Shown piece by piece: positions 1-47,098 of a stretch of DNA of 64,000 bases. The position numbers and the translations under genes are program-made. This stretch comes from Escherichia coli (GTDB lineage: Bacteria > Pseudomonadota > Gammaproteobacteria > Enterobacterales > Enterobacteriaceae), in the NCBI RefSeq assembly GCF_003991155.1, contig NZ_CP031293.1, one strand, 5' to 3'. The notes beneath the pieces were generated by a model that worked only from the letters and a program-made list of their open reading frames with translations, was not told the origin of the DNA and did no database searches. Positions within the stretch are counted from its first letter, which is position 1. Every line of letters starts with the position of its first letter.

Positions 1-4273
<4,273 letters not shown>

Positions 4274-9898: not shown

Positions 9899-9974
9899 TG
9901 GTGGCCCCTGCTGGACTTGAACCAGCGACCAAGCGATTATGAGTCGCCTGCTCTAACCACTGAGCTAAGGGGCC
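9899..9974 (-). tRNA. ileX: tRNA with CAU anticodon, consistent with tRNA-Ile2 (lysidine-modified)
   Basis: Reverse complement reads GGCCCCTTAGCTCAGTGGTTAGAGCAGGCGACTCATAATCGCTTGGTCGCTGGTTCAAGTCCAGCAGGGGCCACCA: cloverleaf, CAU anticodon, encoded CCA. Confidence 0.85.
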
Positions 9975-30171: not shown

Positions 30172-31605
30172 ATGAAAGTAACGCTGCCAGAGTTTGAACG
30201 TGCAGGAGTGATGGTGGTTGGTGATGTGATGCTGGATCGTTACTGGTACGGTCCCACCAGCCGTATCTCGCCGGAAGCGCCGGTGCCCGTGGTTAAAGTG
30301 AATACCATCGAAGAACGTCCGGGCGGCGCGGCTAACGTGGCGATGAATATCGCTTCTCTCGGTGCTAATGCACGCCTGGTCGGGTTGACGGGCATTGACG
30401 ATGCGGCGCGCGCGCTGAGTAAATCTCTGGCCGACGTCAACGTCAAATGCGACTTCGTTTCTGTACCGACGCATCCGACCATCACCAAATTACGGGTACT
30501 TTCCCGCAACCAACAGCTGATCCGTCTGGATTTTGAAGAAGGTTTCGAAGGGGTTGATCCGCAGCCGCTGCACGAGCGGATTAATCAGGCGCTGAGTTCG
30601 ATTGGCGCGCTGGTGCTCTCTGACTACGCCAAAGGTGCGCTGGCAAGCGTGCAGCAGATGATCCAACTGGCGCGTAAAGCGGGCGTTCCGGTGCTGATTG
30701 ATCCAAAAGGTACCGATTTTGAGCGCTACCGCGGCGCTACGCTGTTAACGCCGAATCTCTCGGAATTTGAAGCTGTTGTCGGTAAATGTAAGACCGAAGA
30801 AGAGATTGTTGAGCGCGGCATGAAACTGATTGCCGATTACGAACTCTCGGCTCTGTTAGTGACCCGTTCCGAACAGGGTATGTCGCTGCTGCAACCGGGT
30901 AAAGCGCCGCTGCATATGCCAACCCAGGCGCAGGAAGTGTATGACGTTACCGGTGCGGGCGACACGGTGATTGGCGTCCTGGCGGCAACGCTGGCAGCGG
31001 GTAATTCGCTGGAAGAAGCCTGTTTCTTTGCCAATGCGGCGGCTGGTGTGGTGGTCGGCAAACTGGGGACATCCACGGTTTCGCCGATCGAGCTGGAAAA
31101 CGCAGTACGTGGACGTGCAGATACCGGCTTTGGCGTGATGACCGAAGAGGAACTGAAGCTTGCTGTAGCGGCAGCGCGTAAACGCGGTGAAAAAGTGGTG
31201 ATGACCAATGGCGTCTTTGACATCCTGCACGCCGGACACGTCTCTTATCTGGCAAATGCCCGTAAACTGGGTGACCGTTTGATTGTCGCCGTCAACAGCG
31301 ATGCCTCCACCAAACGGCTGAAAGGGGATTCCCGCCCCGTTAACCCGCTCGAACAGCGTATGATTGTGCTGGGCGCACTGGAAGCGGTCGACTGGGTGGT
31401 GTCGTTTGAAGAAGACACGCCGCAGCGCTTGATCGCCGGGATCCTGCCAGACCTGCTGGTGAAAGGCGGCGATTATAAACCAGAAGAGATTGCCGGGAGT
31501 AAAGAAGTCTGGGCCAATGGTGGCGAAGTGCTGGTGCTCAACTTTGAAGACGGTTGCTCGACCACTAACATTATCAAGAAGATCCAACAGGATAAAAAAG
31601 GCTAA
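30172..31605 (+). CDS. hldE: Bifunctional D-beta-D-heptose 7-phosphate kinase / heptose 1-phosphate adenylyltransferase
   Basis: 477 aa [27 protein letters not shown]... Confidence 0.95.
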
Positions 31606-31694
31606 CCGGAAAGCGCTTCACAGTTCTCGCGTTGTGCCGGATAGACCTATTGACGCTGTTGTTTTTTCAACCTAAAGTAAAGGAACAAGGGTAA

Positions 31695-31830
31695 GGGAGG
31701 ATTTCTCCCCCCTCTGATGAGTTGTTAGTAAGTCGGGAAACTTAACAGTAACAACACAACCAGTATGATGACGAACTTCATCATAACCCTTTCCTTCTAT
31801 AAGGCCCCTTCCTCGGGAGGGGCTTTCCCG
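31695..31830 (+). ncRNA. sib: Sib-type antisense RNA (type I antitoxin) overlapping the ibs toxin ORF; ends at hairpin gcccct-tcctcggg-aggggc + ttt
   Basis: Fully antisense to the 19-codon ibs ORF; terminator-like hairpin at 31806-31825; location between hldE and yqiK matches the known sibD/sibE locus; exact ends not determinable by eye. Confidence 0.5.
31725..31784 (-). CDS. ibs: Ibs-family type I toxin, 19-aa hydrophobic peptide MMKFVIILVVLLLLSFPTY
   Basis: Manual translation of minus strand; ATG-ATG start, 19 hydrophobic codons, TAA stop; too short for the ORF track. Confidence 0.75.
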   Translation of the reverse strand: MMKFVIILVVLLLLSFPTY

Positions 31831-32023
31831 TTTCAGCCCCTTGCTGACTCCCCGATTGTTGATGAGCGCCGGACTCCGCGCAACGCTTTCCCAGAGGCAG
31901 TTTTGCCTTCCCCGAGCAGTCACGCAAAACGCTGCAACAGCCTGATCATTTGCACCTTTTTGCGGAACGCAGATATAAAAAATCCCCGGCTTTTTGGGCC
32001 AGGGATTATTCATAGAAGAGGGT

Positions 32024-33685
32024 TTACTCTGTTTTTTCTTCGACGGGAGTTGTTGAGGTTAAGGGGGAAGTCAATGCCGCCAGTGAGCCGCCTGAAACGC
32101 CAATTTCATTGAGCAAGGAGTCAATCAGTGGTGCCTGTGTGCGGTAAGAGAGTGCGGCTGATAATGCTTGTTCCGCCAGGTTTCCGCCCCCCACATTACC
32201 CGTGTTTGCATCCCCCGCAATACCACCACGATTCAGACCATCGACCTGAATAATCTTGATACCGTCAATGGACTTCATTGGTTCCACGGATTTCTCAATT
32301 ACCGCAGGTAGCGCCTGCAACAAGGCCAGTTTGAATTTAAGGCTGGTTTGTTCGTCAGAAAGTACGTTGATAGCATCGTTCAGCGCACGTTGTGCTTCTG
32401 CTTCCGCCAGGCCTTTTTTACGCGTAGCTTCGGCTAACTCAACGATCGCCGCCGCCTGCATCTCTGCGGCTTCTTTTTCTGCTTTCGCCCGCACGGTCAG
32501 TTCAACCGCTTTGGTTTCTGCATCCTGTGCTGCGGCAATCAGCGCCACCTGCTTGGCACGATCGGCTTCTGCGGTCTGGCGAGTGGTTTCAACGTTTTGT
32601 TGGGCGCTTACTGCTTCTGCGAGTGCAAGGTTAGCACGCGCTTCTGCCTGGGACTGTTGTTCCGATTTGGCGGCAATAGCGATCGATTTCGTCTGGTTAG
32701 CGATTTCGGTGACCTGCTGCTGTTCGATTTCTTTAATGCGAACTTCACGTTCAGCTTCAACTTTTCTGGAACGGACGGCCTGTTCGCGGTCGATTTCTGT
32801 TTCCTGAATCTGTCGTTCAGCCAGAATTCGCGTCTGCTCTGCTTCACGACGACGTTCAGCTTCAAAAGCCGCAATTTTCGCATTCTGCTCAGCGGTACGG
32901 GTTTTAACCTGCTGCTCCTGCTCAAGCGTCATAAACGCTTCTTGCTGTTCAATCTCCAGCTTGCGCGAAAGCGCATCACGGTTTTTCTCACGCACCGCAA
33001 CTTCTACATCCTGTTCAACTTCGTTACGTTCGCGACGACGGCGCTCCGTCTCCTGCGTCAGCTTGGTTAAACCTTCGGCGTCAAAGGCGTTGTTAGGATT
33101 GAAATGTTCTTTCGACGTCTGGTTAAAGTTGGTAAGTGAAACGCTTTCCAGTTCCAGGCCGTTTTTTGACAGATCTTCAGCAACGGTATTTTGTACGCCC
33201 TGCACGAAGTTCTCGCGGGTATCCTGTAACTCATGCATGGTCATTTGCGCAGCTGTTGCACGGAGGGCATCGACAAATTTATCTTCAACCAGCATACGTA
33301 AGTCTTCAGGCGACAGGGTGCGTTGCCCCAGCGTCTGGGCGGCGGTGGCAATACCTTCCACTGACGGTTTTACCCGCACAAAGAAAGCGACAACGACATC
33401 GACGCGCATACGATCTTTCGTAATCAGGCTATCAATGGTTGAGCGGCTGACTTCCAGCTTCAGAGTATTCATATTGATGGGGATTATTTCATGAAAGATC
33501 GGCATCACGATTGCGCCACCGCTCATTACCACTTTTTGCCCACCTAAACCAGTACGAACAAAAGCTTGCTCTGCCGAAGCGCGACGATAGAGCCTGGCGA
33601 AAATAATTCCAATAATAAACAGAATGCATACGGCAATAATCGCGGTAAACATCCAGGAGGGCACAGAATTAACAATATCATCCAT
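32024..33685 (-). CDS. yqiK: Flotillin/band-7 (SPFH) family inner-membrane protein with long E/A/Q-rich coiled coil
   Basis: 553 aa; N-terminal TM, SPFH domain, low-complexity charged repeats. Confidence 0.88.
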   Translation of the reverse strand: MDDIVNSVPSWMFTAIIAVCILFIIGIIFARLYRRASAEQAFVRTGLGGQKVVMSGGAIVMPIFHEIIPINMNTLKLEVSRSTIDSLITKDRMRVDVVVAFFVRVKPSVEGIATAAQTLGQRTLSPEDLRMLVEDKFVDALRATAAQMTMHELQDTRENFVQGVQNTVAEDLSKNGLELESVSLTNFNQTSKEHFNPNNAFDAEGLTKLTQETERRRRERNEVEQDVEVAVREKNRDALSRKLEIEQQEAFMTLEQEQQVKTRTAEQNAKIAAFEAERRREAEQTRILAERQIQETEIDREQAVRSRKVEAEREVRIKEIEQQQVTEIANQTKSIAIAAKSEQQSQAEARANLALAEAVSAQQNVETTRQTAEADRAKQVALIAAAQDAETKAVELTVRAKAEKEAAEMQAAAIVELAEATRKKGLAEAEAQRALNDAINVLSDEQTSLKFKLALLQALPAVIEKSVEPMKSIDGIKIIQVDGLNRGGIAGDANTGNVGGGNLAEQALSAALSYRTQAPLIDSLLNEIGVSGGSLAALTSPLTSTTPVEEKTE

Positions 33686-40494: not shown

Positions 40495-40700
40495 GCTTAT
40501 TCTCAGGGCGGGGCGAAATTCCCCACCGGCGGTAAATCAACTCAGTTGAAAGCCCGCGAGCGCTTTGGGTGCGAACTCAAAGGACAGCAGATCCGGTGTA
40601 ATTCCGGGGCCGACGGTTAGAGTCCGGATGGGAGAGAGTAACGATTCTGTCGGGCATGGACCCGCTCACGTTATTTTGGCTATATGCCGCCACTCCTAAG
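40495..40700 (+). promoter_or_regulatory. FMN riboswitch (RFN element) in ribB leader
   Basis: Conserved RFN core ...agggcggggcgaaattccccaccggcggtaaatcaactcagttgaaagcccgcgagcgctttgggtgcgaactcaaaggacagcagatccggtgtaattccggggccgacggttagagtccggatgggagagagtaacg... upstream of ribB. Confidence 0.85.
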
Positions 40701-45616: not shown

Positions 45617-47098
45617 TCAGTTACGGAAAGGGTTATGACCGTTACTGGTGGTAGTGCGTGCGGATGTTTGCTGAACGACTGGTGCCGGGCTATCAGGCGC
45701 ATAACCATCAGCAATAGCATTCTGTTCCGGCGTTTGCGGTGCAACGTTTTCCGGATTAGTGGAAACCGGTTTGCTCAGCGCATTGTTCAGTGCCAGCAGA
45801 TCCTGCTCGTTCAACGTACCCAGAGCTGACTTAATATTCAGCTGATTAATCAGGTAGTTATAACGCGCATTCGCCAGCTCTTGCTTGGCGTTGTACAACG
45901 TGGTGGTCGCATCCAACACATCAACAATGGTACGCGTACCGACCGAGTAGCCCGCTTCCATCGCGTCTAATGAGCTTTGAGCGGAAACTACGGCTTGTTT
46001 GTAGGCGTTAATGCTACTGATAGATGCATTAATGTTGTTGAAGGAGGAACGCACGGTCTGCACGACGCTACGATGGGCACTTTCCAGTTGCTCGCTGGCA
46101 CCGACAAAGTTGTACTGTGCCTGTTTCACCTGCGAGTTAACCATTCCGCCCTGATAAATCGGCAGCGAGAAGCTCAGGCCAACTTTGTTCTGGCCCATAT
46201 TGCTATCGTCATACTGGGTACCAGCGGCACCACGGGTTTTCGAACCGCTATAAGAGGTGTCAGAAATCCCGGTAGAAGCCGTTAAATCCAGAGTCGGTAA
46301 GTGACCATCCTGCGCCTGGCGAATTTGCTCGCGCGCCAGGTCCTGGCTCAAGCGTGCCTGTAACAGCGACAGGTTGCGTTTTTCGGCTTCTTTCAGCAGC
46401 GCGTTAACCGGCTGTGGTTTGTCGGTTTTAAAGTTTTCGACATTCAGCGCAGCCAGTTCCGGATAGTAGTTACCGGTGATCTGGCGCAGCTGCTCTACCG
46501 CGTTATCAAGGTTATTACGTGCGGTCACTTCGTTCGCCAGCACGGTATCGTACTGTGCGCGGGCGTTCTGCACGTCGGTGATCGCTACCAGGCCCACGTT
46601 AAAACGTTGGGTGGTTTGATCTAATTGACGGTAGATCGCTTCTTTTTGTGCCTGTGTATAGGAAAGAACGTCAATAGCATTCAACACGTTGAAATAAGCG
46701 GTCGCGGTGTTGAGGATCAAGGTTTGCTGATCGGTCTGATACGTGACGTCCTGAATCCCTGCTGCTTTTTCCTGCAGCGTTAACGCACGCCATTTCGACA
46801 TATCAAAAATGGATTGAGTTAACTGCAAGGACGCACTGGTCGCGTTAGAGTTGATGCCGTTCGCGTCGCGGTAGCCGTTGCTATAGGTGTAATCTGCACC
46901 TAAACCTAGCTGTGGCAGTAATGGACTGCGCGCTTCATTAATTTTTTCAAAGGCAGCATCACGATCGGCGGCAGACTTACGCAATTCCGGGTTACTAAGG
47001 CGTGCTTGCTGATAAACTTGCATCAGGTTCTCGGCCTGGCTCAACGAACTGAACCCAGAAAGGCTCAGGCCGATAAGAATGGGGAGCAATTTCTTCAT
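45617..47098 (-). CDS. tolC: Outer-membrane efflux channel TolC
   Basis: 493 aa from MKKLLPILIGLSLSGFSSLSQAENLMQVYQQARLSNPELRKS... Confidence 0.97.
   Translation of the reverse strand: MKKLLPILIGLSLSGFSSLSQAENLMQVYQQARLSNPELRKSAADRDAAFEKINEARSPLLPQLGLGADYTYSNGYRDANGINSNATSASLQLTQSIFDMSKWRALTLQEKAAGIQDVTYQTDQQTLILNTATAYFNVLNAIDVLSYTQAQKEAIYRQLDQTTQRFNVGLVAITDVQNARAQYDTVLANEVTARNNLDNAVEQLRQITGNYYPELAALNVENFKTDKPQPVNALLKEAEKRNLSLLQARLSQDLAREQIRQAQDGHLPTLDLTASTGISDTSYSGSKTRGAAGTQYDDSNMGQNKVGLSFSLPIYQGGMVNSQVKQAQYNFVGASEQLESAHRSVVQTVRSSFNNINASISSINAYKQAVVSAQSSLDAMEAGYSVGTRTIVDVLDATTTLYNAKQELANARYNYLINQLNIKSALGTLNEQDLLALNNALSKPVSTNPENVAPQTPEQNAIADGYAPDSPAPVVQQTSARTTTSNGHNPFRN

Follow-up and report, generated by a model that had tools for sequence, protein, structure and literature searches.

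The hldE and yqiK genes of E. coli flank, in the 64-kb stretch of DNA analysed here (hereafter the window), a spacer of 418 bp measured from the hldE stop (31605) to the yqiK stop (32024). This spacer holds one ibs ORF and one match to the Sib RNA family, both within a single 357-bp repeat unit, and on the yqiK side the unit is followed by normal yqiK-proximal flank (Table 1). The intrinsic terminator of yqiK also lies within the repeat unit and is found in both units of K-12, so that two-unit genomes such as this one have another copy lying between their modules.

Table 1. Features of the hldE-yqiK spacer and its flanking genes, in window positions
Feature	Position	Strand	Basis and remarks
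hldE, 477-aa ORF	30172-31605	+	Stop is the start of the spacer; annotated hldE (WP_000869178.1) in the genome with the identical spacer
Repeat unit, 357 bp, core and tail	31650-32006		Alignment to K-12 E and D units
sib promoter, -35 TTGACG (31650-31655), 17-nt spacer, -10 TAAAGT (31673-31678)	31650-31678	+	Promoter scan, 9/12
SibE RNA, 144 nt, +1 = A, seven bases after the -10 box	31685-31828	+	Ends placed by homology with K-12 sibE
ibs mRNA, about 162 nt, 64-nt 5' UTR	31687-31848	-	Ends placed by homology with ibsD
ibsE CDS	31725-31784	-	Translation; Pfam Ibs_toxin; RefSeq protein WP_001387082.1 = ibsE
TRD1 equivalent (SibC +46 to +68), antisense to the ibs ORF	31730-31752	+	Transferred from PMC2943612; approximate, SibC being 141 nt
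TRD2 equivalent (SibC +99 to +115), antisense to the ibs translation-initiation region	31783-31799	+	Transferred from PMC2943612; approximate
Shine-Dalgarno region, purine-rich, AAGGAAAGGG	31787-31796	-	Read from the sequence; ends 2 nt upstream of the ATG
Sib terminal hairpin, 11-bp GC-rich stem (31801-31811/31816-31826), 4-nt loop	31801-31826	+	RNA fold; followed by TTTCCCGTTT
Putative ibs promoter, -35 TTGCGC (31883-31878), 17-nt spacer, -10 AACAAT (31860-31855)	31855-31883	-	Placed from the mapped ibsD +1
yqiK intrinsic terminator, 10-bp stem followed by TTTTATATCT	31981-32007	-	Terminator scan; within the repeat unit
yqiK, 553-aa ORF	32024-33685	-	Right flank; annotated yqiK, flotillin family protein

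An earlier, sequence-only reading of this DNA had placed an Ibs toxin gene on the minus strand at 31784-31725, and the ORF translates as claimed: ATG-ATG start, 19 codons giving the peptide MMKFVIILVVLLLLSFPTY, and a TAA stop. Searched against Pfam with one in-frame upstream residue as padding (the input minimum being 20 aa), the peptide matched PF13956 Ibs_toxin over profile positions 1-19 of 19 (44.5 bits versus a cutoff of 27, E = 1.3e-11), and this full-profile match rules out a chance ORF; an NCBIfam scan of the Ibs peptide reported no family. At 19 aa, MMKFVIILVVLLLLSFPTY agrees with the 18-19 highly hydrophobic residues that characterize Ibs peptides (PMC2943612). WP_001387082.1 is a common IbsE allele (F4), which is present in many genomes and also occupies the E position where two units occur, for instance in O104:H4 2011C-3493 and LS45. 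The same reading described the gene as missed by the ORF track, which is correct in that 19 aa falls under the 20-aa floor of that list, but RefSeq does annotate ibsE in the identical spacer of E. coli 2016C-3878.

On the opposite strand, the antisense Sib RNA that had been proposed was recovered by the covariance-model search suggested along with it, as a full-length match to Rfam RF00113 SIB_RNA at 31650-31799 (+) (142.2 bits versus a gathering score of 56, E = 2e-29, model positions 1-147 of 147), which is the sole SIB_RNA match in the 64-kb window. The sib promoter coincides with model positions 1-29, the model itself starting with UUGACA, and its -35 box is invariant in the 25 units of our panel. 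The K-12 MG1655 annotation gives sibE a length of 144 nt, its start lying 40 nt past the ibsE stop and its end 44 nt past the ibsE start, and because the alignment of the window with the K-12 E unit shows zero indels over the sib stretch, SibE could be mapped to 31685-31828 (+), with the annotated K-12 3' end falling at 31828. The mapped RNA folds into a Sib-like shape with internal hairpins (-51.8 kcal/mol, z = -3.6 compared to shuffles), closed by a predicted stem of 31687-31692 with 31786-31791. A terminator-like hairpin had been noted at 31806-31825; it is real, but the interval given was the GC-rich centre of an 11-bp stem that extends over 31801-31826. A simple terminator scan does not call this hairpin since the T tract following it, TTTCCCGTTT, is weak and interrupted. 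In antisense, SibE spans the whole ibs CDS (31725-31784, minus strand) together with the Shine-Dalgarno region (31787-31796), and the stretches equivalent to TRD1 and TRD2 are intact, the former being identical to the K-12 E unit and 5 positions off the D unit. At the level of sequence, the plus strand carries the attributes of a Sib, namely its own sigma-70 promoter, a terminal hairpin and an RNA of about 140 nt. A further sigma-70-like site (TTAACA-16-TATGAT, 10/12) was seen at 31742-31769 (+), inside sib and on the Sib strand; an RNA begun there would be about 50 nt long and limited to the ibs initiation region and the terminator. Because the site overlaps ibs codons, its conservation is uninformative.

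The ends of the ibs mRNA were placed with the help of ibsD, for which the transcription start was mapped by primer extension and a 163-nt transcript was used (Han et al., 2010; PMC2943612). The oligos marking the +1 and the 3' end of that transcript (PMC2943612) map to 31848 and 31687, giving an overlap of 142 nt between Sib and the ibs mRNA. The mRNA has a predicted fold of -61.1 kcal/mol (z = -3.4) in which the Shine-Dalgarno region is paired with the mRNA 3' end, and the same region is covered by the TRD2-equivalent part of Sib. We regard the ibs promoter as putative because it matches only 8/12 of the consensus, which is under the scan threshold of 9/12, and it was not called by the promoter scan; among 25 units from 18 genomes, its -10 box is invariant and its -35 box varies in one of six columns. 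In the unit tail, upstream of the putative ibs promoter, we also observed an inverted repeat (31923-31937 and 31950-31964) with 15-nt arms, 87% complementarity and a 12-nt loop. Unpublished transcription-factor sites upstream of ibs promoters are mentioned by Han et al. (PMC2943612).

Comparison with K-12 confirmed the arrangement of two tandem modules described for that strain, where a 794-bp hldE-yqiK spacer consists of two units of about 376 bp, sibE/ibsE at hldE and sibD/ibsD at yqiK, with ibsE and ibsD lying 375 bp apart and each inside its own sib gene. The 357-bp unit and a linker of about 19 nt make up a period of 375-377 bp, which occurs twice in K-12, and the window spacer is 376 bp shorter than that of K-12, which is exactly one repeat period. 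The single ibs ORF that had been counted in the 418-bp spacer held up: no second ibs ORF appeared when the spacer was aligned to the K-12 sibD-sibE region, the check proposed at the time, and no second unit or remnant was found in the spacer by a permissive Rfam search (E up to 10) or by repeat, ORF and motif searches. Nor does the spacer hold the inter-unit linker or the internal direct repeat expected of a two-module sibE-sibD array. The permissive search gave just one extra Sib match, on the other strand of this locus, which at 29.9 bits falls below threshold. A 16-mer motif match at 45625 with 2 mismatches is no more than expected by chance. Elsewhere in the window, we observed an FMN riboswitch (Rfam RF00050) at 40495-40643 (+), with 120.9 bits versus a gathering score of 66.2, which also occurs in the locus of Escherichia sp. 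E1V33 (L024, 8110-8258) at a comparable distance from the sib units, as well as a tRNA gene at 9899-9974 (-) with anticodon CAT, called tRNA-Met by ARAGORN (putative subtype) and scoring 73 bits in Rfam.

A single unit could in principle be produced by the assembly itself, as tandem repeats can collapse in short-read assemblies and two 376-bp units might have been merged into one. The chance of this is next to negligible, since the 418-bp spacer is found at 100% identity in a complete RefSeq genome and one-unit spacers occur in more than 1,100 complete genomes. Moreover, the K-12 E and D units differ by about 9% (33 of about 357 positions), so that a collapse is unlikely and would leave a mosaic consensus, whereas the window core is identical to E units elsewhere. 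The module also appears to be whole. None of its elements (both promoters, Shine-Dalgarno region, ORF, both transcript ends and terminator) is broken or shifted relative to K-12, and the matches to the two family models are full-length. The 181-bp core recurs unchanged in several unrelated genomes, one with two units among them, and the peptide is the allele WP_001387082.1 common to many genomes. We therefore find it extremely unlikely that the unit is a non-functional pseudo-module decaying after a rearrangement, although the ibs promoter is weak by consensus and chromosomal type I loci are said to degenerate sometimes in the introduction of Fozo et al. (2010; PMC2887945).

In K-12 the E and D units can be told apart at 13 sites within the stretch corresponding to 31650-31800, and at 12 of these the window is E-type, the exception being one D-type position in the -10 box. 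The window core groups with the position-1 units of K-12, O104:H4, O145 and LS45 and with unit 1 of E. albertii, and over 31650-31830 (181 bp) it matches the E units of strains 3385, Dog168, A13 and LS45 without a single mismatch. In hldE-proximal synteny, E-type diagnostic sites, E-clade membership and RefSeq name, the window module is thus the orthologue of sibE/ibsE and not of sibD/ibsD.

For the direction of the change, species-representative genomes were scanned for the conserved Sib 5' core, and each of the five loci obtained lies in the hldE-yqiK spacer. Two units occur in E. albertii; the hldE-side unit encodes MMKFVIILIVLLLLSFPTY and clusters with E of E. coli, and the yqiK-side unit encodes MMKLVIILIVLLLVSFAAY and clusters with D. 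Escherichia sp. E1V33 likewise has two units in this spacer. Because E. albertii carries an E-D pair in the same order, the E/D duplication is older than the divergence of E. coli from E. albertii, and the lone E unit of the window is consequently a derived loss. Across a panel of 18 loci, the 181-bp cores formed deep clades, labelled here by the peptide C-terminus, E with SFPTY, D with SFAAY or SFATY, Q with SFQAY and an H-like clade with SFHAY. Two-unit genomes of the panel combine E-D, D-Q or Q-H, and single-unit genomes have E, D or Q; since the retained cores differ among the latter, the one-unit state arose more than once. D-Q pairs were seen in CB8671 and BUCT2930 and Q-H pairs in JSWP006 and Escherichia sp. 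E1V33, and the K-12 IbsD protein (WP_001387081.1) can occupy the hldE-proximal position.

These observations bear on the opposite polarity, in which the one-unit spacer would be ancestral and the sibD-sibE pair of K-12 a later tandem duplication, with nothing lost in the window. Such an order of events could be argued from the tail of the window unit, which is not clearly D-derived, most of the unit being position-1-like, and from the divergent 'E. coli' species representative SCPM-O-B-8794, which also has a single E unit. However, E. albertii has an E-clade unit at hldE and a D-clade unit at yqiK, in K-12 order, so that the E/D split is older than E. coli, and this largely refutes an ancestral single copy. 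The E and D cores differ at about 16-17 of 181 positions, compared to only 0-5 between the window core and any E unit, and one ancestral unit leaves the E, D or Q cores among single-unit genomes unexplained. We consider an ancestral one-unit state very unlikely.

How a unit can be lost is seen in strain OkiPb01709 (NZ_AP042659.1, L007, 701-1117), whose single unit differs from K-12 by 3 mismatches when read as an E-to-D chimera, compared to 18 as pure E and 21 as pure D. It has a K-12-type E unit from promoter to terminator followed by the tail of a D unit, and the crossover lies in the equivalent of 31804-31841, a stretch that is identical in both units and serves as Sib terminator on one strand and as part of the ibs 5' UTR on the other. 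This chimera shows unequal crossover directly. By the same route, the sibD/ibsD unit, which is present in K-12 and E. albertii, would have been lost from the window through unequal homologous recombination between tandem units of about 376 bp. The earlier proposal of copy-number variation through recombination between tandem repeats is in line with the one missing period, the E-D pair of E. albertii and the OkiPb01709 chimera, and for the window we infer that the loss came about by unequal crossover in its own lineage. When the window was compared as a chimera with seven two-unit genomes, the best parent was O145, with 7 mismatches as a chimera and 10 as pure position 1; no crossover point was placed in the window, the gain from 10 to 7 mismatches being too small.

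The window core and the hldE-side flank are identical to position 1 of LS45, and the tail and the yqiK side match other single-unit genomes, including some with D-type cores, so the window arrangement may be an in-situ deletion or a homologous import of an already single-unit allele. LS45 itself is a two-unit E. coli with a different tail and a different yqiK allele. The 44-bp hldE-side flank (31606-31649) differs from E. albertii at 3 of 44 positions, compared to 10 of 44 for K-12, and among 5,428 records that match the window spacer, only 49 do so with an identity of 99% or more. The spacer is a boundary between old haplotypes.

Taking together the intact module, its E-type identity and the absence of a second unit, we hold with high confidence that the region is an intact sibE/ibsE type I toxin-antitoxin module, that it is the sole module of the hldE-yqiK spacer, and that sibD/ibsD has been lost, most likely by unequal recombination.

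The frequency of this state was estimated in complete E. coli genomes. A 130-nt query over the K-12 E|D junction was covered by at least 80% in 4,276 of 5,426 genomes, and about 1,140 further genomes matched only its left half; this count slightly overestimates two-unit genomes, since non-collinear pieces are joined, as in one hit (H101) that is a single-unit genome. The census was therefore repeated with 60-nt linker-only queries for two linker variants, which found the K-12-type linker in 3,929 genomes and the second type in 159. Between about 1,140 and 1,340 of the 5,426 complete genomes (21-25%) are thus in the one-unit state, a figure that counts genomes in a biased collection rather than independent events and that rests on the two known linker variants, so that rare linker types would count as single-unit. 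In agreement with this range, 8 of 40 evenly spaced rows were single-unit. The one-unit state is a common polymorphism of E. coli and not unusual. The 60-nt linker was located at 3,944 places in 3,929 genomes, and about 15 genomes probably have the linker twice, with three units in the spacer. One strain, E. coli EC0900 (NZ_CP158187.1, L020, 1551-2675), is without both the sib/ibs module and yqiK; an IS903B transposase directly follows hldE and is adjoined by a truncated FimD/PapC-like gene, an IS-associated deletion or rearrangement.

A broader reading, which we put forward tentatively and think has less than an even chance of being right by some distance, is that the hldE-yqiK spacer is a small cassette array in which at least four module types (E, D, Q and H) predating E. 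coli are shuffled and pruned by unequal crossover and allelic recombination. The window would then be an E-only outcome on an unusual, E. albertii-like flank haplotype. Should selection maintain the types, for instance as toxin/antitoxin specificities that do not cross-react, the spacer would be a natural system for the diversification of cognate antisense specificity. No published description of a locus-level type structure of this spacer was found in the literature searched, the founding paper (Fozo et al., 2008) lying outside that scope.

The function of such modules has been studied in K-12, where Sib RNAs are abundant small RNAs of about 140 nt that are constitutively expressed, repress their cognate ibs genes and span the whole cognate ibs ORF and its initiation region (PMC2943612). 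Ibs peptides, of 18-19 hydrophobic residues, are described as harming the cell envelope when overproduced (as cited in PMC2943612). Only cognate pairs show repression, which begins at two recognition domains that act independently, TRD1 opposite the ORF and TRD2 opposite the initiation region, from which pairing spreads until the duplex is cut by RNase III (PMC2943612). By analogy, the minus strand of the window would give rise to an ibs mRNA of about 162 nt (31848 to 31687) encoding IbsE, a 19-residue hydrophobic membrane toxin, and the plus strand to the 144-nt antisense SibE (31685 to 31828), the promoter of which is constitutive in K-12. SibE is perfectly complementary to the entire ORF and the ribosome-binding region of the ibs mRNA, and would make first contact through two exposed segments, TRD1 in the ORF and TRD2 over the initiation region, before pairing along the mRNA. 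This pairing would block translation and expose the duplex to RNase III, so that the toxin would not be made. Expression, toxicity, repression mechanism and transcript ends of the window module are in this way presumed to be as in the K-12 experiments.

Much of what is described here is in keeping with earlier work. The module is known and already annotated, and its copy-number state is a common polymorphism. It has been published that ORF callers routinely overlook ibs genes and that ibs-sib loci occur as tandem duplicates in a single intergenic region (PMC2887945, PMC2943612). The number of Ibs varies by strain and species, with 6 in EDL933, 3 to 7 in Shigella, 2 in Salmonella and 5 in K-12 (PMC2887945, PMC2943612), and the ibs genes show lineage-specific duplications and some losses (PMC2887945). 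The comparative results alone are mildly new: how often the one-unit state occurs, that it is derived and recurrent, and which old module types are shuffled at the spacer. The finding has little import beyond annotation: a 19-codon toxin gene and its antisense RNA, overlooked by mechanical ORF lists, are present and intact, and the strain has one Sib/Ibs module fewer than K-12. Since the one-unit state is frequent, derived and associated with different retained units, sibD/ibsD (or sibE/ibsE) is dispensable in nature, and studies that use sibD as a model, for example of NAD capping, should not assume the gene to be present in every E. coli.

One close counterpart is ibsE of E. coli 2016C-3878 (NZ_CP029747.1, BEN53_RS18960, WP_001387082.1), where the 418-bp spacer is 100% identical, the flanking genes are alike and no spacer difference was detected; in that record ibsE is annotated, whereas the Sib RNA carries no annotation. 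The sibE/ibsE module of K-12 MG1655 (b4611/b4666) resembles the window module in its position downstream of hldE, its orientation and the spacing of its parts. The two peptides are identical in 18 of 19 residues, the difference being L4F through one base at 31773, and the units differ at 5 of 181 positions in the core and 10 of about 176 in the tail. In K-12, sibE/ibsE is followed by the sibD/ibsD unit, whereas in the window the module is directly followed by yqiK.

The sibD/ibsD module of K-12 (b4447/b4664), which is the unit absent from the window, is like the window unit in family, architecture and length. However, K-12 IbsD differs from the window peptide at 5 of 19 residues and the 181-bp cores show 17 differences, which cluster in the TRD1 and TRD2 regions that set cognate specificity (PMC2943612). 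A more distant parallel is offered by the ldr/rdl and EHEC z3289/z3290 families, in which a small hydrophobic toxin is also paired with an antisense RNA and duplicated in one intergenic region, tandem or single depending on the strain (PMC2887945), while their sequences and loci are unrelated to sib/ibs.
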